Shown in pieces: positions 15,816-56,583 of a DNA stretch of 64,000 bases. The position numbers were made by a program, and so were the translations under genes. The number at the start of each line of letters is the position of its first letter. The stretch's first letter is position 1. Origin of the DNA: an uncultured delta proteobacterium (lineage in GTDB: Bacteria > Myxococcota > Myxococcia > Myxococcales > Myxococcaceae). The DNA is taken from the NCBI GenBank assembly GCA_963796055.1, contig CAWCKH010000004.1:1152001-1216000 (forward strand). Reading direction: 5' to 3'. Below the pieces are notes generated by a model. That model had not been told where the DNA came from and made no database searches. It saw only the letters and a program-made list of their open reading frames with translations.

Positions 15816-16504
15816 TCAAGTACTGTTCCCGACGGCGACAACTTCAGCCGGTGCGAGGGGCGCATCTGCCGCGATGGTGACCACCCATCCATCGCGCGTC
15901 CGCCACAAGCCCCAGAAGGTGGCAGCGGCCGCTCTCACCTGGAACCGGCGCCACCCACTCTCCGGCGCCAATTCGAGCAGCTCCACCGCGAGCGTGCGCG
16001 TGTCCAGGCGAAGGCCCTGGCGAAGCGCCTTGGCCGCGCATTCCTTGGCGCTCCAGATCAAATTCGCTGAGAGATCCCGTCCCAGCGGCGACCGGAGTAC
16101 CGATTTTTGCTCGGCCTCGGTGAAGAAGTCGCTCACGAAGGCAAAGCTCCGCGGCTCGAGCCGCTCGAGGTCGGCCCCGAGCGCGACCTCGGGCCCGGCC
16201 ACCGCGCAGAGCGCGCGACCATCGCGATGGCTCAGCGAGATGGTGACCGGCAACTTCGCACCGCCGATCAGCGCCTCGGGAGCGCCGTCGGGCGCGGCCC
16301 GGATCTCCAGTGACGCGAGCTGCAGAGGGTTCGGCATCCACCCGGAGAGGGCCTGGCGCGCGGCGAGCCTTCCGAGCAGGAAGTCCCGGCGCCGCTGCTC
16401 GATGCGCATACTGCGAGCGCGGTTGCGCTCCGCAGCCGAGAGCCATCCATCAGATGATGGAAGCTCATGCTCGTCCACAACGAGCCAGCCGATCCGGCCG
16501 GCGT

Positions 16505-16508
<4 letters not shown>
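15816..16508 (-). CDS. 4'-phosphopantetheinyl transferase (Sfp-type)
   Basis: GTG 16508 overlaps the carboxylase stop; FLLGRLAAR, DGAP, ISLSH, GADLE, WSAKE..KAL..GL. Confidence 0.88.
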
Positions 16509-21763
<5,255 letters not shown>

Positions 21764-21767
21764 GGCG

Positions 21768-24700
21768 TCACCCCGCCAGCCGCGAGAGCAGCTTGGGGTC
21801 CAGTGCGTCGGGGAGAGGAGTGGTGCGGTAGCCGCTCAGCCGCACGTACGCGTTGCCTGCCTCGTCCACCACCTGGGCATCGAAGGCACCGCCAGGGCCA
21901 TCCACCACCACTGCGCTCAAGCGTCCCACCGCGCGCCGGAGCTCGCCCGCTGCTTCTAGGTAATCCACGTGCTGGGGCAGTCCCAGGTGACCGGTGGCGC
22001 GCATCTCGCGCAGGCCGGCGGTCTGGAAGCACAGCTCGATGAGCCGCGGTGAAAGCAAGAGCGGCGCCTCCGCCGGCTCGTGGTCCAGAGGCAACTGCGC
22101 GGGAAGGACTCCCACCGTGTCGGTCCCAGTGCCATTGGACGCGCGCTCGAGGACCCGGTACGCCGGACCATGGAAGTAGACCCGGTAGATGTCATCCGCC
22201 GGAACCCAGGCGCCCTGTGGCTCGGCCCGCGTAGCCGGCGCCAGCGATGGCGGCGTGCGCGCGAGTCGCACCCGGGCGGTGAAATGGGTGGTGATCTGGG
22301 GAGCCTGTCCGGCAAGCGTCCGCTCGCCGCTCAAGCTGCAGTCGGCGACCAGCTCTCCTCCTTCCTCGCGAATCTGCGCGCACAAGCTCAAGGTGCGAGG
22401 CTGAGCGCGGAAGAACTTGAACGGCGCGAGGAACTCGATCGCCTCCACCGCTGCGAGGTAGTAGCCCGGAGCCAGCAGCGCAGCCAGCTCGCCGAACCCC
22501 TCCACGCCCATCACGCCGGGTAGCACCGGGATCCCGTCGATCTGGTGATCGCGCAGGAACGGCTGCCGCTCGGGATCGAGCGTGGTTTCCACCTCCAGAC
22601 CTCGCTGAAGCGTCATCCCGACCACCCGGCCGATCATCGGGCCGCACCTCGAGGTATCCACCCGCTCAGGAGCGAGCCCCCCGGTCGGATCGCGCTCGTC
22701 GAGCAGCGTCCCCAGCCGCCCGGCGACCACCACCTCTCCACGAGCTCCGCCGCGCGTCAGCTCTCGCCGGATGGTCGGAATGCCTACCTGGGGCGGGAGC
22801 ATCTCGATGCCGGCGCGCTCCATCATCGCCGGGATGGAGCCACGCGTGGCCATGCCGATGCCGGCCCAGGCGGTCCAGTCGATCGCGATGCCCCGCGTGG
22901 CAGGACGCGTGGTGCGCAGCGCGCTCGCCTGCTTGCAGAGGAGATCATTGGCCGCGCTGTAGTCCGTCTGGCCCGCGTTGCCGAAGCGCCCGGCAACGGA
23001 GCTGAAGGCCACCGTCGCCCCGAGCGGCATCTGGCCAATTGCGTGAATCAGGTTGAACCAGCCGTCGCATTTCACGTCGAAGACGAGGTCGAACTCAGCC
23101 TGGCTCTTGTCGGGTAGCACTCGACTGAGCTCCAAGCCGCCGGCGTGGAGCAGGACGTCCACCCGCCCGCTGCCCTCGCGCACCGCATCGATGGCCCGGG
23201 CCACGGCAGACGCATCACGCAAGTCCGCCGAGTGCCAGAAGGCGCGTCCGCCTGCCTCGCGCACCGCCTTGATCGCCGCCGCGCCACTGGCGGCCCGCTC
23301 CAGCGCCGCCAGCTCCTTCTCCACCAGCGCCGGCGTGGCCCGGTCACCGCGCGCCTTCATCCGCTCGAACAGCTCGCGCTTGAGGCCCTCGCGGTCGGTC
23401 GCCAGTCGCTTCACGTCCGACGACTGCCCGTCAGGCTCGGGAATCAGGTCGAGCAGGTGGAAGGTGCCGCCGGAGGAGGCCGCCAGATCGCCGACGATCG
23501 CCGAGACGATGCTGCCCGCCGCGCCGGTCACCACAAAGACGGTATCTCGTCCCAGCGAGAGGCCGGGTTTGCCGTCCGCGGCGAGCACGTCGCGGAGGAC
23601 GACCGAGAAACGTTGCTCCCCAGACCAGCCGATCTCGACTGCCCCCGGATCCCGCAGCGTTTCTTCGACGAGCAGTCGGGCCACCTCCTGGGGCGCCCGG
23701 GAGCCGTCGAAGTCGACGGCCTTGACCAGCGCTTCCGGCCGCTCGCGCGACAACGCCTTCGAGAAGCCAACGACCGCGCCCCCCATCGGCGCACTCGCCC
23801 CGGTCTGGCCATAGCCGTGCAGCCCGCCGAGCCGGGTGGCGACGATCGCGAATGCACCGGGCGCCCCGAGCAACGGATAGAGAGCCCGCGCAGCGGTCGC
23901 GAGGAGCTTCACGCGCAGAAAGAGCGCGGCACGCCACGCTTCCAGCGTCATCGCTCGCAGATCGCCCTCGTCGTCGAGCGCGGGCAGCCAGTAGATGCCG
24001 CGCAGGCCCTTCTCCGCCTCGGCGGAGATCCTTGCCGCGAGCTGATCGGGCGATGTCTGGCGGTCGAGCAGCACCGCTTCCACTCCGATCAGTCCGAGGC
24101 GCGCGACCAGCGCCTCGGCCACGCCGCCGGCATCGGGCATCACCAGCACGCGCGCGCCTCGCTGGAGCAGGACGGCTGTGTCCTTGCAAACGGCCAGCGG
24201 CGGTCGGAGAACCGGGACCGGCACGCGCCGTGGAAAGGCATCGGCCGCGTCAGTCGAGGTCGCCGGGGAAGGACCGGCGCTCGCCGAGGACATGGCGGAC
24301 AGGGGCGCGTCCATCGATGATGCAGGCACCGGCGCAGCGGCCCACGGTGCGGGTAGCGGCGCGGCGGCCGACGGGGGGCCCCCGAGATCCGGTCGCCGCT
24401 CGAGCACGAAGCGAATCACGTGCTCGACGGTGGGAAAGTCGCGCAGCTTGAGGTTCTCATCTCGCGGGATGCCATAGGCCTGGCGCACCGCCGCAAACGT
24501 CTCCGCCTGCTTGACGGTGTCCACGCCAAGGTCCGCCTCGAGGTCGAGCCCCGGATCGATCATGTCCGGCGGATAGCCGGTCTTCTCGGCGACGATGGAG
24601 AGCACCTTGGCGCGCACCGCATCGTCAACCTCATTTCCAGCCACGGGCGACGGACCCCCGGTCGGTGTTGCGGGCTGCGCTCCCGGACCTGCCAGGTCCG

Positions 24701-27700
24701 GCCGCCGGTCGCGGACGAAGCGGATCACGTGCTCGACAGTTGGGAAGTCCCGAAGCTTGAGGTTCTCTTCGCGCGGAATGGCGTAGGCCTCACGGACCGC
24801 GGCGAAGGTCTCCGCCTGTTTGACGGTGTCGACCCCCAGATCGGCTTCGAGGTCGAGCCCCGGGTCGATCATCTCGGGCGGGTAGCCGGTCTTCTGCGCG
24901 ACGATGGCGAGCACCTTCTCTCGAACGGGATCGGCCGCAGCGGACGACGCCGGCGGCGGCGCGGCAGCACCGGCTTGGATCGGAGACGTGGCCGCAGGTC
25001 GACTTGCCGTGGCACCGGCATCCGTGTCGCCTCGACCAATGGGCCCAGGGCTCACCGCGAGATCTGGCCGTCGATCGCGGACGAAGCCGATGACGTGCTC
25101 GACCGTGGGGAAGTCCCGAAGCTTGAGGTTTTCCTCGCGGGGAATGGCATAGGCCTCGCGAACGGCGGCGAACGTCTCCGCCTGCTTGACGGTGTCCACA
25201 CCCAGATCGGCCTCCAGGTCGAGTGAGGGGTCGATCATCTCCGGGGGATAGCCGGTCTTTTCCGCGACAATCGCCAGCACCCTGGTCCGCACGGGATCTG
25301 CGGAGGACGGGGGCGTCGCAGCTGAGCTCAGGCTCGAGGCCGCCGGGGACGTTGCCGCCGAGCTCGGGGTCGGAGCCGCTGGGGCTGGCGGCGCTCCCAC
25401 TCCCGCAGGCGAGGCCGCTCGGCCCGGCTCAACCGCGGGCGCCTGCATCGCGACAGGCGGAGCGGTGGGAGAGGCAGCGCGCGGGGCCGGGGCAGGGGTA
25501 GCAGCCTCTCCCTTGGCGCGCCCTCGGCGGGCATGATCGCCGCTGTCCTGCACGCGCAGCGTCCGCTGAACGACCTCGAGCCGAGCATCCTTTCGTCCGC
25601 TGACCCGGGCAACCCAGGAGTCGAACGCGGCAGGGTTCTCGATTCGCCACTCGTAGCCGAGTGCTTCGGGTGCGCGGCGCGAGCCGTCCACCGACGCCGA
25701 GCGCCGCACGAGCGTCATGCTGATTTGCGATCCGAATCCCGCGGCCAGCCGGAGCGCGTACTCGACCGGTTGCGCTCCGCCCTTGGAGAGATTGAGCGCG
25801 CCAAGCTCGGGATCGACCTCCTTGAAATTCGGAATGGGGGGCACGATGCCGGTTTCGAGCGCCTTGAGCGCCACCACGTCCTCGATACCGACGCCCATCG
25901 GGTGACCGGTGAATCCCTTCGTGTTCGCCACCACGATCCGGTCGGCATCCGCCCCGAACACCTTGCGCAAGGCGAACACCTCGGCGGCTGCGCTTCCGCC
26001 TCGGGCCGGGGTGTACGTTTCGTGCGACAGGAAGACCAGCTGGTGCGCGATCTCGGCTCGCCGAAGGCCGGTACGCTCTTCGACCTGCGAGATGAGTCGC
26101 TCCATCAACCCGCCGATGTGCTCGACGTCGAGGCGGGTCCCATGGAATGCGCTGTTCGCGGCGACCGCCCCGAGCACCTCCCCGATCGGGCGAAGCCCAC
26201 GGTCCTGTGCGGCGGAGGCGCTTTCCACCACCATTGCAGCGGCGCCCATCCCGACGATCATTCCGTGGCGCCTTCGATCGAAGGGGGTGGCCGCGTCCTC
26301 GGCGAGCGCATCCGTGGCTGCCGCTCCGCTGGCCAGAAAGCCTGCACCGATCCACTCCATCAAGTTGTCCGAGGTCGCATCGTCCCCGGCGATGACGATC
26401 ACCCGTCGGCAGCGGCCGGCACGGATCCAGTCCTCCGCCAGCGTGACGGCCAGCGTCGTGCTGGCGCAGGCGGAGTTCACTTGGGTATTGGGCCCGCGCG
26501 CGCCGATGTACTCCGCGAACTGCGAATGACCCATCGACAGAACGCGGAACAGGAACCGCCGGTCGAATGCGTATGGCTCGCGTTCCAGCTGGCCGCGAAG
26601 CTCATCGATGCGGCGAGCGAGGTCGGCGATGACGGGATCGTGCCCGTTGTCCGGAGCCCGCCGCGCATGGAGGGCCTCCAGCGCCTGCAGCTGCTCGCGG
26701 CGAGCCCGATCGCGGTGGTAGCGTGTCATCTCTCCGGCCAGCGCATTCAGCCCCGGAAATGCCGAGGCGAAAATGACGCCGGTCTCGTCGCGAAGCTCGT
26801 CGGGAAGCATCCAGCGATCGGGCAGCTGCGTCCCGCGGGTGGTGGTGCGATAGCGCAGGACGAGCGGAATTCCGGCGTCGCGCAGCGCCTCGAGACCCGC
26901 GGCGATCGCCAGAGAGGTCGTGACGTCGAACGCCTCGACGCGTTCCTTGGGCACGCCGAACTCGGCGGTCAAATCGAACTCGCCGCGCCGGCCCGCCAAC
27001 TTGATCACCTCAGCTGGGCTCTCCAGCGCTGCGAAGTTTGCGCTTCCGTCCTCGCCCTTCACCAGCCGGGTGATGTGCTTGGCGAGCATCGCTTTCCGCA
27101 GGCGAGCCGGAATCGAGTCGATCAACTGCTCGCCCTCGAGGATCCGAGCCACGTTGTCGTCGGCGAAGACACGCTCGCCTCCAGGCAGACCGAGACCTGC
27201 TCCGGTGATGACCACCGGCTCGGCCACCGCCGGCTTGGCCGCTGGCGGACGAACTTGCGGCTCGGGCAGAGGTCTGGCCGGCGCTTCCGGTGCCGCTTCC
27301 GCCCGTCCCGATCCGATCCCTGCGGCGTAGAGCCCGCAGAGCGCCCGATTGAAGGCGACCGCGTCGTCGATCTTCGGATGATTCGTGAACAGGACGCTCA
27401 CGCCCTCGCGGTCGCCGAGGACCTCCTCGGCAAACCCTTGCAGTGCCTTCTTCGGCCCCACCTCCACGAAGACGCGTGCGCCGGCCCGATAGAGAGTCTC
27501 CAGGCCCTTGACGAACTGAACCGGCGCCGCGACCTGCTTGCTCAGCATGTCGATCACCGCCGAGCGCACCTCGCCTTCCGCCGGGTAGAAGTCGCCGGTG
27601 ACGTTGGCCACCACGGGAATCCTGGGCGGCTTGACCTCCAGTCGCTCGAGCATCTTGCGCAGCGGCTCGCTGGCCGGGGCGACGATCGCGGTGTGAAAGG

Positions 27701-30104
27701 CATGGCTCACTGGCAGAAGCACCGTGTTGCGCCCCGCCTCGGTGAACATCTGCTGGGCCTGGGTCACCGCCTTGCTCTCTCCGCCGATCACCGCTTGAGT
27801 GCGGCTGTTCACGTTCGCCACCACGGCGTAGCCGTCGATCTTCGCCAGCGTTTGCTCGATCTCCTCCAGCGGCGCGGTGACCGCCACCATCAACCCGTTG
27901 TCCTCCAGCGAGACCCGGGTCATCTCACGGCCGCGCGCGCTCACCGCTTCCAGCGCGTCGCGGAACGAGAGCGCGCCGGCCACGGTCAGCGCGCCGTACT
28001 CGCCGAGGCTGTGGCCGATCACGAAATCCGGCGAGACTCCGAACGATGAGAACAGGCGCGTCAAGGCCACGTCGACGGTCAGCACAGCGGGCTGGGTGAT
28101 CGCCGTCTGGCGAAGCGCCTCTTCCGCAGCGGGGTCCTTCGGATCGGCGAACAGGTAGGAGCTGAGCGATCGGTCCAGCAGGGCCGGCATCTCCCGATCT
28201 GCTTCGGCGAACGTCTCCGCCACGATCGGTTCCAGCTCCCGCAGCTTCCTCAGCATGCCGACGTACTGCGAGCCCTGGCCGGTGTAGAGGAACGCGAGCT
28301 TCCCCGCCGGGCCCCGCCCGCGGAAGATTCCCCGCGCCCGCAGCGCCTTCCACGACCCGGCTTCGTCGTTGACCAGCGCATGGCGCGCCAGCGCGGCGTT
28401 CTCCGCCAGCTCGGCCGCGTTTCCGTAGTCCAACGCCACGCGCTCCTGGGCGCGCAGGTCGCGCTGGTCGGGCGCGAGCAGCGGCGGCAGGCGTCCCTCG
28501 TGCGCCTCGCGCTCGGTCGCCTCCAGCCTCCGGGCGAGCTCTTCACGCGTGGTGGCGCCGATCAGCAGTGCCCCTCTCAGCGGAGGGCGCGGCTCGGAAG
28601 CATCGCGCGCCAGCGCGACGGGCTCCGTTGGTTGTCGCAGTGCAGCCCCGGTCGGAGAGCTTCGCTTGCCCGAGAGCATTCCTGGCACGAACTCCTCCAG
28701 CACGACGTGGAAGTTCGTGCCGCCGAACCCGAATGCGCTCACCCCCGCGCGCCGCGGTGTCCCGTCCTTCGGGGCATCCCACGATTGCAGCTCGCGGTTC
28801 ACCCGGAACGGGGAATGGGCGAAGTCGATGTTTGGGTTCGGCTTCTCACAGTGGAGGCTGGGCGGGAGCACCTTCTCGTGGAGGGCCAGGATGGCCTTGA
28901 GCAGGCCTGCGGCGCCGGCCGCGGCCTTCAGATGCCCGATGTTCGATTTCACCGAGCCGAGCGCGATCGCGCCAGCGGGAAGCTGCGCTCCGCCGAAGGA
29001 CTCGGTGAGGCTCTCGACCTCGACCACATCGCCCACCTTGGTGGAGGTGCCATGTCCTTCGATCAATCCGGCGCTCGAAGGCGGCAGGCCGGCGGACTGC
29101 CACGCACGTTGGACGGCGAGCTTCTGGCCCACCGGGTTTGGTGCGGTGATCCCTTTGCCCTTGCCGTCGCTCGAGCCGCCGATCCCGCGCAGCACGGCAT
29201 AGATCCGGTCGCCGTCTCGCTCGGCGTCGGCCAGTCGCTTGAGCAGAAACACGGCCGCGCCTTCCCCCATCACGAAGCCATCGGCTCCATCGGCGTAGGG
29301 GCGCGTCCCGGTGGCCGAGAGGGCGCCGATCTTGCAGAATTTCACGAATGCATTGACGCCCATGTTCCGGTCGATTCCGCCGGTGAGCGCAGCGTCGATG
29401 TCCCCTTCGACGAGGCCGTGCATCGCAGCCTCCATCGCCGCCATCGAGGACGCGCAGGCGGCGTCCACCGTGTAGTTCGGCCCGCGCAAGTCAAAGACGT
29501 TGGCCACGCGGCCGGCGATGATGTTCGACAGCTCGCCGGGCATGGAGTCCTCGGTGATCACCGGAAGTCGCGCTTCCAGCGCTTCACGCGCATCCCTGGA
29601 GAGCCGCTCGCGGAGGTCCCTGGGGAGCTCCTCGAAGCTCTTGGCGTGCTCCAGCGCCTGAGAGATTTCCGGGATCAGCGTGCGCATCGTGGTGAACAGA
29701 TGGCGCTCGCCCCCCATCGCGTTGCCGAAGATCACCGCGGTTCGCACCGGATCGAGTGGGCGCTTTGGATACCCGTAATCGAGCAGCGCGGCGCGCGAAC
29801 AGGCCACGGCCCACTTCTGGCCGTCATCCATGGCCTCGGCGACCCGAGGGGGAATGGGAAGCTTCCAGCCGATTGGATCCCAGCTCCACGAGCGGACCCA
29901 GCCGCCGATCTTCGAGTAGGTTCGATCGGGCGCCGCGGGATCCGGATCCCAGTGGAGAGCAGGATCCCAACGCTCTGGCGACACTTCGGAGATGCTGTAG
30001 CTGCCTGAGGTGACGTTCCTCCAGAAGGCGGCCACGTCCGGCGCGTCGGGCAAAATGGCGCCCAGGCCCACGATGGCGATGCTCCGGTTCAGCTTGTCTT
30101 CCAT
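21768..30104 (-). CDS. PfaA-like type I PKS/FAS: KS-AT-KS-ACP-ACP-ACP-KR-DH
   Basis: KS1 [38 protein letters not shown]2 NSACAS/HETYT/GHPMG; three [33 protein letters not shown]. Confidence 0.92.
24385..25300 (-). repeat. Three tandem near-identical ACP-coding units separated by Ala/Pro linkers
   Basis: [61 protein letters not shown] occurs three times. Confidence 0.9.
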
Positions 30105-30122: not shown

Positions 30123-31790
30123 TCAGGCGGCCTGCTGCTTCTCGGCGGCTCGCCCGTAGATGGCGTCCGCGGCCGCGTCCATGTCGGCCACCAGCCCGAT
30201 CTGGGCTCGATGAATCTCGGGCAGGCCCAGCGAAGCCTCCAGCGCTGGAACCTCGGCGTCGCGAACGCCGCCCGCGCCGCAGATCCACGCCAATCCTTCC
30301 TCGCTGATCCTTGCCGCCGCCTCTCGGGCGAAGATGCGGCTGAGCGCCGCCAGCGGCTCAGGCGCGAAACGTCCGTCGGCCTTTTCGGGGAGCGTTCCGG
30401 CGAATGCCGCTGCCGCCCGGCGCGCGAACGCAGCGGCGGTTTCCCCGAAGGCGATCAGCTCGCCCAAGCGAAACAGCACGTGCTGGTGGCGAGTCAGCCT
30501 GGCGACGCGCGAGCGCTCCATCACCTCGGCGAGCGACTCGAGGGCGAGCGCTGCGATCGGCCCGCCCGAGCTTGCCGGAAGCTGTGTCACCTTCCGCGCC
30601 TGCTCCCGGTGGTACTGACCGCGCGTCTTCAAGTGCTGCTGCCAGCGATCGCGGGCGATGGTCATCTCCAGTATTTCGGAGGTTCCCTCGTAGATGGTGG
30701 TGATCCGGACATCGCGTTTGATTTTCTCGACCATGTACTCGCGGGTGTACCCGTAGCCGCCGAGCGCCTGGATGGACGCGTCGGCGGCGCGGTTGCCCGC
30801 CTCGGTCGCCAACAGCTTGGCGATCGCGCCTTCGGTGTTCAGCTCCTTCTCGCCCTCGTCCAGGCGGGTGGAGGTCTCCTCGACGTGCGCCCGCGCCGCC
30901 TCCAGTCGCGCGGCGTGGGGGACGATCAGCTTGTGGGTGTACCCCTGCTTTCCCGAGAGCGGCGAGCCGCCTTGCAGGCGCGTCTTGGAGTACTCGATCG
31001 CCCGGTCCAGGGCAGCCCAGCCGGCCCCCAGTCCGAATGCAGCGACCATCAATCGGGTGTAGCCGAAGACCGCCTGCGCCTGGACCAGGCCGCGCCCCTC
31101 CACCAGCCCGACCACCCGGTCGACGGGGACCTCCACTTCGTCGAGCGCGAGCGCCGCGGTGTTGCTGGCGCGAATGCCGTGCTTGTCCTCTGGTTTGCCG
31201 GCGCTCAGACCCGGCGTTCCCTTGTCGACCACGAACCAGGTCGGCCCCCCGGGAGCGTTGGCGAGGATGGTGTAGAGGTCTGCAAAGCCGCCGTTGCTGA
31301 TCCACTGCTTGGCGCCGTTGAGGCGATAGCCCACCAGCTGACCGTCCTTCTCCACGCGGGTCGCGGTCGTTCGCAGAGCGCCCAGGTCGCTGCCCGCGGC
31401 CGGCTCGGTTGCGCCGTACGCCATGATGATTCCCTCGTCGGCGATCCTGGTCAGCCAGCGCTGCTTCTGTTCCTCCGTCCCGCCCACGGAGATCGGCTCA
31501 CTGCCGAGGAAGGTGGCGAACAGGCCGGTGGCGATGCCCACGTCGATTCGCGCCATCTGCTCGCACAGGCGGTACAGGTCGAAGGATCCGCCGCCCATGC
31601 CATGCAGCTCCTCGGGCATGAACGCCATCTGGATGCCAAGCTCGGGACCGCACATGCCGCGGATGATCTCGACCGGGTACTCGTCCTTCGCATCGAGCTC
31701 GAGAAGCTTGGGGTCGGTGAGCCGCCTGGCTCCAAAATCCCTCAGGGCATCGATGATTTCTTGAAGCGTCTGCCTGTCCAGTCCTCCCAT
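30123..31790 (-). CDS. Acyl-CoA dehydrogenase with C-terminal extension
   Basis: [36 protein letters not shown]; first gene of the PKS operon. Confidence 0.92.
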
Positions 31791-38987: not shown

Positions 38988-40266
38988 GCTCGATCTGCCC
39001 GACACATCGCCCGGCAGGCGCCGCACTGGCGCTTTCGGTAGCGCTGAGCATGTCCGCCGCCAATGCGTATCCGCTCGATGCCTATCCGGAGACGGGACTC
39101 CGCCGGCTCGAGGGTCTTCGCCTGGCCAATGAAGGAAAAGTCGCTGACGTCAAGCAACCCAAAGGAGCAATGCTGCCGCTGAAGGCCGTCGACCTCAGGC
39201 TCGTCGGCTCGACGTTCGATCTGCCGCCGTCCGACCCCGAGCTCGACAAGCAACTCGCCGGGATCCTCGGCGGCGGACTTGCCGGCTACGGAGTCGCCAT
39301 CCTGGATCTGCCGATCCAGCGGAACCGCACTACGCCGAGCACAACAGCACCTATCGCCAGAACGTCGGCAGCGTCGGGAAGGCAGTCGTGGCGCTCTCCC
39401 TGTTCCAGGCGCTCGCCGACACGTACCCCAACGACATCGCGGCCCGGCAGCACATTCTCAAGAACACGGTCGTGACTGCGGACGGCTTCTCGCAGCACGA
39501 CCACCATACCGTGCGCATGTTCAACGTCGAGACCGGGAGCCTCACCCGCCGTGCAATCCGGGTGGGTGACAGGGCCACCCTCTGGGAGTTCGTGGACTGG
39601 ATGATGTCGCCGAGCTCCAACTCCGCCGCTGGCATGGTGATGCGCGAGGCGATGCTGCTGCGGCAGTACGGCACCGCGTATCCGGTGCCCGAGGCCGAGG
39701 CCAGGCGCTTCTTCGGCCAGACTCCGAAGCCCGAACTGACCGCACTGCTGGAGAAGACCTTCTTCGAACCGGTCACGCGCAACGGGCTCGATCTGGAGCA
39801 ACTCAGGCAAGCCAGCTTCTTCACCGCGACCGGCAACCAGACCGTGCCGGGAGCGGGGAACAGCTATGGCACCGCACGAGAATTGATGCGCTACCTGCTT
39901 CACATGGAAGAGGGGCGCCTCGTCGACGAATGGTCGAGCCGCGAGATCAAGCGCCTGATGTATGTGACCGAGCGCCGCATCCGCTACGCCAGCGCGCGGT
40001 CACTCGCCAACGCGGCGGTCTACTTCAAGTCCGGTTCGCTCTACGAGTGCGCGCCGGAGCCCGGCTTCCGCTGTGGGCAGTACATGGGGAACGTGAAGAA
40101 CTACATGAACTCGATCGTGATCATCGAGTACCCGGCAGGTGAGCGAAAGCTCCATTACATGGTGACGCTCATCTCGAACGTACTGCGCAAGAATTCGGCG
40201 GCCGAGCACCAAGTCCTAGCGGGCAGAATCCAGCAAATGATTCTGGCGCGTCGAGCGAGCCGTTGA
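38984..40266 (+). CDS. Exported class-A-beta-lactamase-like serine hydrolase, frameshift near 39310
   Basis: Signal peptide; after the shift SVGK (SxxK), SSN and KSG motifs; GTGA-coupled to the upstream gene. Confidence 0.7.
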
Positions 40267-41187
40267 TCCGATCCCGACGCTGGAGAAGTTGGAGGCAACG
40301 TGTTCCCGCTCGGGCGGTACGATCAGATCGTGCATCGGGCCCGCAAGCCGGGCGAGCCATTCGCCGCCCTCGGCGTGTTCGGCGATGCCGACCAGCACGT
40401 AGCGCTTGCCGCGGCACTCCACCAGCGCGCTGTCCGCGTGCGTCTGCCTCCACGTCCCGGACTTGCGAAGAATCTCGACACCCGGTCGTCCCTTGAGGCC
40501 CTTGACGAAGTAGTGCTGAATCCCAGGCCTGGACAGAACCTGCCTCATCAATGCGTTCATCGGCGGGCTCAGCAGCTTGTCGGTCGCCAGCATCCAGTAC
40601 AGGCGCGCAACCTGGAAAGCCGTGGCGCCGTGCGAGAGGTTGTGCAGCGGGTCGCGCCGCGTGGCCGGCTCCGGCCCGTAGCCCTTGCCAACCCAGAGCC
40701 CGCCGGCACCTGCCCGATCATAGAGGGCAAAGCGCGAGGACTGCAGGATCTCCGCAAGGCGGTCGACGCCGACCCAGCGGAGCACGCGGCTCGCGTCCGC
40801 GTTGCTCGAGAACCGGATCATGCGGGTCATGGCGGCCACGGTCTCGCCGTTGATCGGCAGCCGACCGACCTCTGCTTCAGCCAAGGCGCCGAGGAGGATC
40901 GCCACCTTTGGCATGCTCGCCGCGTACATCATGCGGTCGCCGTTGAGCATGGCGAGGCGTGGCGCGGCCGGATCGGTCGCATCCACCAAGGCAAGGGCGA
41001 GGCGACCCTGTGCAACCTCGCCACTCAAGCCGGCATCGGCGACGACACGCTCCATCGCCGCCTGCAACTCGGAGTCCCGGGAGTCGCGCAGGCCCGCGAC
41101 GGTGGTTTCCGCAGAAGCCGACGCGGCGATGAGGGTCAGAGCGCAGACGGCGCAGTAGCGGGCGAACGGATTCCGGAGAAGCGACAT
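40216..41187 (-). CDS. Exported class-A-beta-lactamase-like serine hydrolase
   Basis: Signal peptide; YAASMPK, FSSN, RKSGTW. Confidence 0.85.
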   Translation of the reverse strand: MSLLRNPFARYCAVCALTLIAASASAETTVAGLRDSRDSELQAAMERVVADAGLSGEVAQGRLALALVDATDPAAPRLAMLNGDRMMYAASMPKVAILLGALAEAEVGRLPINGETVAAMTRMIRFSSNADASRVLRWVGVDRLAEILQSSRFALYDRAGAGGLWVGKGYGPEPATRRDPLHNLSHGATAFQVARLYWMLATDKLLSPPMNALMRQVLSRPGIQHYFVKGLKGRPGVEILRKSGTWRQTHADSALVECRGKRYVLVGIAEHAEGGEWLARLAGPMHDLIVPPEREHVASNFSSVGIGSTARSTRQNHLLDSAR

Positions 41188-50386: not shown

Positions 50387-50827
50387 ATGACCGACCGCGA
50401 GCAGGACTTCGAGCAGCAGCTCGGGCCGCACTGGCGGATGAAGATCTCTCGGGAGCGGGAGATTTACGCCGAGCCGATGCTCGACGCGGAGAACATCCGC
50501 CGTGAGTTCGGCTGCTCGCGATCGAAGGCCTACGAGCACCTCCACGCCGCTCTCGCGCACTTCGGAATCGTCCCGGAGGCTGGCAAGCAGCTCCGGATCC
50601 GGTGGAGCATCTGGCAGCGGTACAAGCAATCGAGAATCCCATGGGCAAGGGTAGATATCGGCTCACCAGGCGCGGCCTGGTCTGGTACGCGCACGTCTAC
50701 GAGAACGGGGCACGGAGGCAGATCTCCACCCGTTGCACCGACCTCAAGGCGGCCGAGCTTGCGCTCCGACAGCTCGAGCGGGACAGCGCCGATCCGGCCC
50801 ACGCTGCCGCGAAGAAGGCCTCGCTGA
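50387..50827 (+). CDS. Putative excisionase-like HTH protein overlapping the integrase 5' end
   Basis: MLDAENIRREFGCSRSKAYEHL HTH pattern; position directly before int. Confidence 0.55.
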   Translation: MTDREQDFEQQLGPHWRMKISREREIYAEPMLDAENIRREFGCSRSKAYEHLHAALAHFGIVPEAGKQLRIRWSIWQRYKQSRIPWARVDIGSPGAAWSGTRTSTRTGHGGRSPPVAPTSRRPSLRSDSSSGTAPIRPTLPRRRPR

Positions 50828-51837
50828 GCGACGCGCTCGCTCTGCTCCTCGAGCGCCGCACGGAAGAGGCGACCGCCGGCCGGCGCAGCCCGGAGACGGT
50901 GGCGTTCTACCGGCGCAAGGCCGGCCACCTGACCCGCATCTTCGAGCACCTGGACGACGGCAAGTACGAGCCGTTCATTCTCACCCACCTGAGAGCAGCA
51001 GACGTCGACCACTACATCTCGCTCCGGCGCTCGGAAGCGGTGAGCGACCACACCATCGCCAAGGAGCTGGTGACTCTTCGAGCCTCTCTCAAGCTCGCCA
51101 AGCGCGCGGGGCTGTGGCTCGGCGACATCGATGCACTCTTGCCGGTCGGCTTTGCTCCGGATTATCGGCCACGAACCCGTGCCCTCTCGACCGAGGAGCT
51201 CGGGCAACTGCTGGCCCTCCTGCCGTCAGCCCGAGCGGCGCAGGTGGGCTTCATCGTCGCGACCTCCGCGTGCTGGAGCGAAGCGGTGAAGGCTCGCCGA
51301 GGCGACGTTCAGCTCGATTCCGGCTGGGTCCACATCCGCGGCACCAAGCGGGCTGCCAGAGATCGGCACATCCTCGTCCGACACCCAACTCTCGTGAGCC
51401 TGCTCGCGTACGCGCTCAAGCACGCTCCTGGCGAGGACCTGCTCTTCCCGCCCTGGAGCAACGTCCGCCGCGATCTCCTCATCGCCTGCGAGCAGGCCGG
51501 CATCGAGCCCTGCTCTCCGAACGACCTGCGCCGCACCTACGCCAAGTGGATGCGACTCGCACGAGTCCCGGCTGAAATTGTTGCTCCAACCATGGGCCAC
51601 CGCGACACGCGCATGGTCGAGCGCGTCTATGGCCGCCTGTCGCCTGAGGAAATCGGTGCGCTGCTGACCGCCCACTTCGCTCCGGACTGCATCGCCGGTG
51701 CATCAGACAGCGTGGATTCGGCCGGAAAACGTGGACGAAATGGACGTTCGCGTCGCGCCAAGCCAGCGAAAACAGTGCCCAGGGGCGGAATCGAACCACC
51801 GACACGGGGATTTTCAGTCCCCTGCTCTACCAACTGA
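50641..51837 (+). CDS. Tyrosine recombinase/integrase whose 3' end runs through the att core
   Basis: GTK, NDLRRT, MGH..RMVERVY; stop codon lies inside the tRNA gene on the opposite strand. Confidence 0.9.
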   Translation: MGKGRYRLTRRGLVWYAHVYENGARRQISTRCTDLKAAELALRQLERDSADPAHAAAKKASLSDALALLLERRTEEATAGRRSPETVAFYRRKAGHLTRIFEHLDDGKYEPFILTHLRAADVDHYISLRRSEAVSDHTIAKELVTLRASLKLAKRAGLWLGDIDALLPVGFAPDYRPRTRALSTEELGQLLALLPSARAAQVGFIVATSACWSEAVKARRGDVQLDSGWVHIRGTKRAARDRHILVRHPTLVSLLAYALKHAPGEDLLFPPWSNVRRDLLIACEQAGIEPCSPNDLRRTYAKWMRLARVPAEIVAPTMGHRDTRMVERVYGRLSPEEIGALLTAHFAPDCIAGASDSVDSAGKRGRNGRSRRAKPAKTVPRGGIEPPTRGFSVPCSTN

Positions 51838-53874: not shown

Positions 53875-56583
53875 TCAGCTCTCTCCGTCGGACGGCTCCG
53901 AGGTCGGCGGCTCGGCGCCGGGCGGCATGATCTCCTCGCCGTTGCCGCTGTCCCCGTTCTCCTCGGTGGCCTCGGGCAGCTTGGAGATGCCGCTCACCTT
54001 CTCCCCGGCGCTCTCCAGGCTGATCAGCCGCACCCCTTGCGTGTTCCGGCCGATGACCGAGATGTCGTGGACCTTGATCCGGATCAGCATCCCGCCGCTG
54101 GTGACCAGCATCACCTCGTCGCGGTCCTTCACCTGGGCCAGGCCAACCACCGTCCCGTTCCGCTCGGTGGTCTTGATGTCGATGATGCCCTTCCCGCCCC
54201 GGCCCTGGATCCGGTACTCGGACTCCTCGGTGCGCTTGCCGTACCCGTTCTCGGTGACGGTGAGGATGGTCGTCCCCCGCTCGACCACGTCGGCGCCCAC
54301 CACCTCGTCTCCGTCGTCGAGGGTGATGCCCTTCACCCCGTAGGCCTGCCGGCCCATCGAGCGAACCTCGGCCTCGGCGAAGCGGATGCTCATCCCCTGG
54401 GCGGTGGAGAGGAGGATGTCCTTGGTCCCGTCGGTGATGAACACTGCCACCAGCGAGTCGCCGTCCTCGACCCCGAGGGCGATGATGCCGGCCGAGCGCA
54501 CGTTGGAGAAGGCGTTCAGGTCGGTGCGCTTCACCACGCCCTTGCGGGTGACGAAGAAGACGAACCGGCCTTCCTCGAACCCCTTGGTGACCAGGATCGA
54601 GGCCAGCTTCTCGCCCTCGCCCATCTGGACCAGGTTGATGATCGGCTTGCCCCGCGCGGTGCGGCTGGCGGCGGGAATCTCGTGCACCTTGAGCCAGTAC
54701 AGCTTGCCCCGGGTGGTGATGGGCATCAGGTAGGCGTGGGTGCTGGCGACGAAGAGGTCGGAGACGAAGTCGTCCTCCTTCATCGACGCGCCGGTCTTGC
54801 CCCGGCCCCCGCGACGCTGGGAGCGGTACTCGGAGAGGGGACTGCGCTTCACGTACCCGGCGTGGGACACGGTGACCACCATGTCCTCCTCGGCGATCAG
54901 GTCCTCGCTGGTCAGCTCGGAGGCCTCGCCGGTGATCTCGGTGCGGCGCTCGTCGCCGAACTTCTCCCGCACCTCGCGCAGCTCGGCCTTCACCACCTCG
55001 AGGAGAGTCGTTTCGACCTCGAGAATCTCGCGCAGCCGGGCGATCTCCCGGGTGAGGGAGATCAGCTCGGTGAATAGCTCCTCGCGCTGGATCCCGGTGA
55101 GGCGCTGCAGCCGCATCTCAAGGATCTGCTTGGCCTGCTCCTCGCTGAAGCCGCCGTCCTCGTAGCGGTGCTGGAGCCCGGCGTACTTCGGCTCCTCGGC
55201 CCGAGCCCGGGCCACCAGCTGCTCCATCTGCGCCTTGGCCGCGTCGAGGTCGAGCCGGGGAAGCTCCCGGAAGCGCTCGTGCTCGTAGAGCGAAGGAGAG
55301 AGCACGTGCATCAGGCCCCACCGCGCCTCGTCCGGATCGTGCGACCGGCGGATGATGGTGATGACCAGGTCGATGATGTCCTGGGCGACCAGCAGGCCTT
55401 CCACCACGTGAATGCGGCGCTCGGCGTTCTTCAGCTCGAAGCGGCTCCGGCGGGTGACCACCTCGCGGCGGTGGCTGATGAACCGCTCCAGCAGCTCTCT
55501 GAGGTTGAGCGTCCGCGGCTGGCCCCCGTCGATCGCCAGGAGCACGATGCCGAAGGTGGTCTGCAGCGGGGTGTTGGCAAAGAGGTTGTTCAGCACCACC
55601 CCGGAGATGGCGTCGCGCTTCAGCTCGATGACCAGACGCATGCCCCGGCGGTCCGACTCGTCGCGGATCTGGCTGATGCCGTCGATCTTCTTGTCCCGCA
55701 CCAGCTCGGCGATCTTCTCGGTGAGCCGGGCCTTGTTCACCTGGTAGGGGATCTCGGAGACCACGATGGCCTCGCGCTCTCCCTTGGCCGCGGTCTCGAT
55801 CTCGTGCCGCGCCCGGAGGGTGATCTGCCCGCGGCCGGTCTCGTATGCGCGCTGGATGCCCTCGCGCCCGAGGATGAACCCAGCGGTGGGGAAGTCCGGC
55901 CCGGGGATGTGCTGCATCAGCTCGCGGACCGAGGCCTTGGGGTGCTCGATGAGATGGAGCGTTCCGTCGATGACCTCCCGCATGTTGTGCGGGGGAATGT
56001 TGGTGGTCATTCCCACCGCGATGCCCGAGCTCCCGTTGACCAGGAGGTTGGGAAAGCGAGTGGGGAGGACCAGCGGCTCCTTCGTCGAGTCGTCGAAGTT
56101 GGGGCCGAAGTTGACGGTCTCCTTGTCGATGTCGGCGAGCATGGCCTCGGCCAGCTCGGTCATCCGGCACTCGGTGTACCGGTAGGCGGCGGCCGAGTCC
56201 CCGTCGACGCTGCCGAAGTTCCCCTGCCCGTCCACCAGGAGATACCGCAGGTTCCAGGGCTGGGCGAGGCGGACCAGCGCGTCGTAGACGCTCGCGTCCC
56301 CGTGGGGGTGGTACTTCTTGAGCACCTCGCCCACCACGCCGGCGCACTTGCTGTACTTGCGGTTGTGGAGCAGCCCCTCGTCCTGCATCGCGTACAGGAT
56401 GCGGCGGTGCACGGGCTTCAGGCCGTCGCGCACGTCGGGCAGCGCCCGGCCCACGATGACCGACATCGAATAGTCGAGGTAGCTCTTGCGCATCTCGTCC
56501 TCGATGTTGATCGGGACGAGATCGCCGGCGCCGCCACCCGGTGGAGTCGGAGGCGCGGGAGGGGTCGGAAGGTCTTCGGACAT
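53875..56583 (-). CDS. gyrA: DNA gyrase subunit A
   Basis: [21 protein letters not shown], GyrA box QRRGGRG, beta-pinwheel repeats. Confidence 0.97.

Follow-up and report, generated by a model that had tools for sequence, protein, structure and literature searches.

Relation of the operon to described synthases

The secondary-lipid synthases of Type R, as described by Shulse & Allen in 2011, are encoded by a gene of the order KS-MAT-'CLF'-ACP(3-6)-KR and a downstream gene for a phosphopantetheinyl transferase (PPTase) with the motif hShxH; in Koribacter a carboxylase gene lies between the two (PMC3098273). An operon of this layout is located on contig CAWCKH010000004.1 of assembly GCA_963796055.1 at 1,152,001-1,216,000. 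This whole stretch of 64,000 nt is called the window, and all positions given below are window positions. The operon encodes an iterative type I fatty acid/polyketide synthase (FAS/PKS) with three acyl carrier protein (ACP) domains, all of which carry a threonine in the column where the phosphopantetheine serine normally stands, called position 0 here. The circumstantial evidence that this threonine is the working attachment site is strong. It is described in no paper that we found.

Judged by gene order and motifs, the operon belongs to the Type R group, the layout of which was already known. The synthase shows the order KS-AT-KS2-ACP3-KR-DH, and the PPTase reads ISLSHR at the P1b' motif hShxH. 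Unlike Type R in the 2011 description (PMC3098273), the 'CLF' slot holds an intact Cys-His-His triad and a DH domain follows the KR. Close homologues of the cluster were found in Bryobacteraceae, Korobacteraceae and Roseiflexaceae, and the window KS grouped with Roseiflexaceae and Terriglobia loci in a tree without the five named Type R proteins. The main text of PMC3098273 contains neither the word threonine nor serine, and threonine is also absent from one text supplement.

Type S (Desulfobacterium autotrophicum), for which the role of core FAS was suggested in 2011 (PMC3098273), differs from the window synthase by an N-terminal NMO-type enoyl reductase (ER) and an extra KS pair. A Type S-like protein of matching domain order (WP_319493995.1) has four ACPs reading DTVKQVE; for Type S, the threonine is thus seen in this protein, which stems from Desulfobacter. 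The PfaA synthases of polyunsaturated fatty acids share the tandem ACPs and the context EKTGYP...LEADLGID, and the best NCBIfam hit of the window synthase is TIGR02813. Unlike it, they carry the serine motif DSIKRVE and have no second KS before the ACPs. An assignment as PfaA was rejected, since the TIGR02813 score of 885.6 is below the cut-off of 1010.1 and no pfaB, pfaC or pfaD was found among the 48 ORFs scanned.

A homologue with a required role in vivo is CexF of Acetivibrio (Clostridium) thermocellum, the knock-out of which abolishes the celluxanthene pigments (PMC12144888). A Type T protein of C. thermocellum with the same domain order was already listed in the 2011 supplement (PMC3098273). 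The locus (L237) was identified by a primer from the supplement of PMC12144888; the gene lengths fit Table S6 and three further primers are present as typed. The CexF analysed here is that of L237 / ABN51376.1, not the DSM 1313 record WP_003512162.1; the L237 protein differs from ABN51376.1 / WP_011837763.1 at 3 positions, and the CexG of L237 matches ABN51377.1 / ADU75137.1 in every residue. Over the full length, CexF and the window synthase are collinear (30% identity over 2838 columns); in CexF the KS, AT and KR motifs are intact, and the three ACPs all read EADLGID-T-VKQAT (T1624, T1732 and T1863). The cex cluster (PMC12144888) thus shares with the window the domain order, three Thr ACPs and an adjacent PPTase. 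Two KAS III, an AMP ligase, a stand-alone Ser ACP and a hydrolase occur only in the cex cluster and not beside the window synthase, whereas an acyl-CoA dehydrogenase-family (ACAD) gene and the carboxylase are found only in the window cluster. Threonine is not mentioned in the main text and the supplement text of PMC12144888, figures excepted.

Threonine at position 0 in the window and its homologues

An earlier note on this DNA had claimed that threonine replaces serine in all three ACPs. This is borne out at T1638, T1760 and T1863, each encoded by ACC, and the synonymous codons around them differ from copy to copy. Three stretches of the synthase matched the Pfam family PP-binding (PF00550) with 63.3 bits (cut-off 20.8); the hallmark serine of this family at the attachment site is missing, threonine being present in 3/3 copies and family-wide. 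The threonine aligned with the serine of solved ACPs (LGVDS / LGADS) and forms the first residue of helix II in an AlphaFold single-sequence model (pLDDT 83.6). The top Foldseek rows for this model were all ACPs (probability 1.00, TM about 0.74-0.83), none of them reaching E 0.001. A contig of run X1, which may be the source sample, spans 24295-24674 including the third Thr codon and shows zero differing letters.

In the best 120 of 6286 homologues all ACP domains carry threonine (605/605). The best 80 of 328 confirmed GTDB loci have threonine at position 0 in 300 rows, serine in none and a gap in 6; the Thr codons are ACG (135), ACC (133), ACT (19) and ACA (12). Serine is only one base away from the Thr codons, yet no Ser codon was detected in this set. 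The threonine is therefore neither error nor chance, and the motif D-T-V, the conservation of which the earlier note wanted to see checked, is conserved in the homologous clusters. These counts, together with the codon differences between the copies and the X1 contig, exclude a sequencing or assembly error, as the earlier note had argued for a single error from the flanking codons. The decay of one local gene is excluded by the family-wide threonine and the invariant active sites of the homologues.

Because most homologue sets were ordered by their similarity to a Thr query, two less biased sets were also used. The first, the 150 best representatives of a clustering at 50%, contains 438 Thr versus 139 Ser ACPs; the Ser-only proteins among them are PfaA-like (DSIKRVE, DSIKKAQ) or fragments and lack a second KS, except for P0223. 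With this Ser-bearing protein as query, 111 of 120 hits possess a second KS, and of these 107 have no Ser copy, two are Ser-only and two have one Ser copy. The hits without a second KS are all Ser (9/9). Homologues with mostly serine, which would have spoken against the idea, were thus not obtained even with a Ser-bearing query.

In 268 KS2-bearing proteins, ACPs with intact context comprise 1245 Thr versus 11 Ser. The 21 decayed copies in these proteins show seven different residues at position 0. Decayed copies lose the motif and position 0 together; alanine or valine is almost never tolerated at position 0. The tandem ACPs number from one to eight in the family with a near-invariant motif. 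The 80-locus alignment contains no alternative conserved serine in the ACP (maximum 24.5%, in one terminal column), which argues against another serine as carrier of the arm.

Bacterial carriers of the Thr motif belong to Myxococcota, Acidobacteriota, Chloroflexota, Actinomycetota, Leptospiraceae, Gemmatimonadales, Pseudomonadota, Saprospirales, Calditrichaeota, Desulfobacter and Acetivibrio, archaeal ones to Heimdallarchaeota (Asgard) and Thermoplasmatota. The named members thereby cover about eleven bacterial phyla besides the Asgard and Thermoplasmatota archaea. Of the 251 genomes sampled from the phylum of the window, 78 contain DNA of the motif (one match in the reversed control). As read from these homologues, the exchange of serine for threonine where the cofactor is normally attached is real, ancient and widespread in this known but barely studied synthase family.

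The motif occurs in other architectures, too, e.g. KS-KS-AT-ACPn plus KS-KS-KR-DH. Thr-ACP architectures with 2-6 KS domains, each beside a PPTase, were found at L121, L122, L126, L140, L123-L125, L128-L133, L135, L139, L149 and L150; some of these loci have an Ntn-hydrolase (PF03417) domain, and DUF2378 genes flank three. The type I FAS/PKS megasynthases of the Thr family in Heimdallarchaeota and Thermoplasmatota records are P0223 (MCY3414055.1), P0147 (MDH5403301.1), P0202, P0425 and P0426. In several of these archaeal proteins a PPTase is fused to the C-terminus, an arrangement also known from fungal FAS; a reversion to Ser is seen in P0223. Clusters with one or two Thr ACPs are present in two cultured species, Nonomuraea gerenzanensis (L181, NZ_LT559118.1 5985469-6017696) and N. 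rosea (L073). L181 and L078 each have a wax-ester/DGAT gene upstream, which hints at a link to storage lipids.

The linked PPTase and the other operon genes

The window PPTase possesses the Asp-x-Glu...Glu triad, the role of which as metal triad in Sfp-type PPTases is known (PMC4103896), as well as the CoA-site His and Lys. Its residues H94, D113, E115, E156 and K160 align with H90, D107, E109, E151 and K155 of Sfp. The metal- and CoA-binding residues are thus conserved with respect to the group II enzymes, the described substrates of which, in contrast, are Ser carriers. Among 132 Thr-linked PPTases the equivalents of D107 and K155 are kept in all 132, of E151 in 131 and of E109 in 128. These residues and the motif residues listed in Table 1 confirm the earlier statement that the PPTase and the KS, AT, KR and DH motifs of the operon are intact. 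The subfamily has an AcpS-like N-terminal half and an ExRxxxF segment, presumably located in the carrier-binding helix. The window genome also encodes AcpS and a second Sfp-type enzyme, the cluster PPTase being the third. About 8 kb from this second Sfp-type PPTase lies a stand-alone carrier (G000:C6:44152-44325, minus strand), the site of which is unusual and reads AGMTSHASVN.

A PPTase is present inside 63 of the 80 homologous loci. Of the other 17, 11 stop before or at the expected place and six are full-length; the five genomes of the latter that were tested all contain a close PPTase elsewhere (E 1e-61 to 1e-85). Fusions of PPTase and synthase were found in 31 protein ids (six near-duplicates), of which 26 are Thr-only in intact copies, three have one Ser copy and two are Ser-only. 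Eleven further fused Thr loci came from 60 fetched regions; these regions had been picked for nearby ACP and PPTase hits, and adjacency in them is therefore partly due to selection. Of the 251 genomes, 49 gave a PPTase hit below E 1e-27, and all 49 have the Thr motif; of the 173 genomes without the motif none gave such a hit. This cut was chosen after the data had been seen, at most 11 candidates were scored per genome, and related genomes are not independent cases.

The four genes form a tight operon in the order ACAD - synthase - acyl-CoA carboxylase - PPTase (Table 1), and the ACAD gene was found in 65 of the 80 homologous loci. The AT motif of the synthase is one that we take to be malonyl-type. 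Catalytic residues were counted in 337 Thr-only proteins, each domain being scored only in proteins covering it. Kept are the KS1 Cys in 212/212, the AT Ser in 232/232, the KR Tyr in 262/262 and the DH His in 250/250. In KS2, the 'CLF' of 2011, the Cys is present in 258/258, and the Cys-His-His triad is kept without exception (258-263 homologues), as it is in CexF.

Table 1. Genes and synthase domains of the operon (window positions).
Feature	Position	Strand	Residues and remarks
ACAD-family gene	30123..31790	-	directly upstream of synthase
Iterative type I FAS/PKS	21768..30104	-	2778 aa; KS1-AT-KS2-ACP x3-KR-DH, without ER or TE (thioesterase)
KS1	28692..30086	-	C217/H351/H391 intact
AT	27414..28292	-	GHS699LG, R724, HAFH804
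KS2	25695..27218	-	Cys-His-His C1213/H1361/H1401
ACP1	25062..25298	-	Thr1638, codon 25191-25193
ACP2	24696..24932	-	Thr1760, codon 24825-24827
ACP3	24387..24623	-	Thr1863, codon 24516-24518
KR	22725..23534	-	S2369/Y2382/N2386
PKS-type DH	21804..22640	-	H2520/E2690/Q2694
Single-chain biotin-dependent acyl-CoA carboxylase	16505..21763	-	BC-BCCP-central-CT
Sfp-type PPTase	15816..16508	-	GTG start overlaps carboxylase stop

The BC part of the window carboxylase is degenerate: neither the ATP-grasp lid (GGGG loop) nor the motif RLQVEH is present, whereas the CT domain and the MKLE motif for biotin are retained. The same losses were found in the carboxylases of L008 and L015; the acidobacterial copies shown are intact. 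The window enzyme may have decarboxylase or transcarboxylase activity, or may borrow BC from elsewhere. The product of the synthase is most likely a fatty-acyl or polyene chain. CexF, which lacks an ER, makes a polyene, and some relatives have an NMO-type ER (P0477, P0263). That the ACAD supplies the missing ER role is possible, if a little doubtful.

Further features of the window are unrelated to the threonine finding. They include a phage-integrase-family ORF (50602-51837, plus strand), a gene for subunit A of gyrase/topoisomerase IV (53875-56583, minus strand) and, at 39388-41187, overlapping ORFs on opposite strands, each with a weak Beta-lactamase2 match.

Probable loading of the threonine, alternatives and meaning

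The carrier motif would have changed long ago from the PfaA-type DSIKRVE to DTVKQ(A/V)x and then been kept in the lineage. Very probably, the cluster PPTase loads phosphopantetheine on the ACP threonine, a transfer that we infer: with CoA and Mg it would form a phosphopantetheine phosphodiester on the Thr hydroxyl. Phosphoester transfer to threonine has precedents in flavinylation by ApbE and AMPylation by Fic. The holo-ACPs would serve as ordinary thiol carriers, handing on malonyl units and the elongating chain between AT, both KS, KR and DH. The housekeeping PPTases are presumably unable to load threonine, which would give the cluster a reason to retain an enzyme of its own.

Several points, among them the sampling and the cut-off noted above, weigh against this reading. 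For spinach ACP, a result similar to the following one for E. coli ACP is reported to have been obtained in 1989. In E. coli, the ACP variant S36T is neither phosphopantetheinylated nor functional (PMC3340395); known enzymes thus pose a real barrier to Thr loading, and a dedicated PPTase is to be expected. The literature searched, which mostly excludes subscription papers, contains no report of natural Thr attachment, so that an earlier mention is possible, and no mass-spectrometric or enzymatic evidence for it. Two further ACP threonines are similarly conserved (98% and 100% in the 80-locus alignment), and invariance alone is therefore no proof of modification. The cexF knock-out, as described, is not ACP-specific (PMC12144888).

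Co-occurrence with a PPTase clade, which the earlier note had suggested to check, holds in part: the linkage is tight and sometimes a fusion, but the Thr-linked PPTases form no exclusive clade, such a clade being unsupported by a FastTree of 191 rows. Within the subfamily we found no residue separating Thr-linked from Ser-linked enzymes. R120 and F124 were rejected as compensating residues because they also occur in the subfamily's Ser clusters; the motif GLRxDTR was rejected because fused forms do not retain it. In genome G005, that of L002, one PPTase was detected; it belongs to the Thr-linked clade, is unlinked from the synthase and occurs together with a Ser AcpP, and may therefore be retained there for another reason. 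G005 also contains a FabF-like gene and gave no acpS hit and no FabA/FabZ hit.

Serine itself returns in places. P0223 and P0455 are nested among Thr synthases and are therefore regarded as reversions, and in P0416, P0425 and P0208 the first ACP has Ser (DSVKQVE / DSIKQAE) and later ACPs of the same chain have Thr. The unrooted AT and KS trees require 2-3 Ser/Thr changes; a single origin of the threonine is neither demonstrated nor excluded by them. Since the revertant and mixed proteins use the same PPTase subfamily and the sole PPTase of G005 occurs beside a Ser AcpP, the cluster PPTase probably accepts serine as well. The mixed chains provide natural material for studying PPTase preference.

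Alternatively, the Thr domains might stay apo and act in docking or scaffolding, the cluster PPTase priming a Ser carrier in trans (AcpP, or CexB in the cex cluster). This is quite improbable, although it would agree with the inert S36T protein and other carriers are at hand. The window genome contains AcpP with an ordinary Ser and four other carrier-like hits. All of the 25 Thr-synthase genomes checked gave other PP-binding hits; more than one PPTase hit was obtained in 24 of them, a FabA/FabZ hit in 17 and none in eight. The Thr synthase as the only fatty acid synthase is in general unsupported by these carriers and FabA/FabZ hits. CexB, encoded in the cex cluster itself, is a stand-alone Ser ACP, so that for this cluster a trans carrier stays open. 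In the other loci, a search with four other carriers of the window genome yielded no stand-alone ACP except next to a Ser cluster; the trans Ser ACP by which the earlier note would have been refuted is thus absent from the Thr loci examined in this one search and present in the cex locus. Apo domains also fit poorly with the near-invariant motif of the tandem copies as against the drifting decayed ones, with the PPTases fused to Thr-only synthases and with the rarity of Ala or Val at position 0.

It is highly improbable that the threonine carries another group, such as an O-acyl ester formed directly or some other arm derived from CoA, or that the arm is attached to another ACP residue. The missing compensating change in the PPTase and the conserved hydroxyl residues T-21, Y-19 and T+29 would suit such a modification. 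Against it stand the full Sfp set of CoA/Mg residues in the PPTase and the occurrence of the TGY motif in Ser-type PfaA ACPs, too. The chemistry of the KS Cys and AT Ser requires a thiol carrier. Moreover, the Ser revertants fall exactly at position 0, showing this to be the interchangeable site.

That the clusters are inactive relics, or that decoding or editing turns their Thr codons into Ser, is extremely improbable: the degenerate BC part and an RNA-labelled run, the short contigs of which are 95-99% alike across the operon and do not prove its transcription, would allow it, but the active sites are invariant, all four ACN codons are used in many phyla and two domains of life, the AcpP of the same genome encodes an ordinary Ser, and CexF, needed for a real product (PMC12144888), largely refutes it.

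Rather doubtful is a further reading, an orthogonal priming, in which a PPTase subfamily would prefer or require threonine and the Thr carriers would be unloadable by AcpS and Sfp. If true, this would insulate a large class of lipid and polyene megasynthases of bacteria, Asgard and Thermoplasmatota archaea from the carrier network of the host, and would offer engineers a ready-made orthogonal carrier/tag pair.

Beyond the earlier note, our analysis places the threonine throughout the family, identifies this family as the catalogued Type R/S/T group and finds the same residue in CexF, the member validated by a knock-out. Phosphopantetheinylation is known as a modification of serine, and Ser-to-Thr exchange has been used to inactivate carriers (PMC3340395). 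A natural attachment to threonine, if true, would change this serine-only rule. It predicts that the cognate PPTase is needed for heterologous expression, and synthases that could pass as inactive in motif-based annotation would be rescued.

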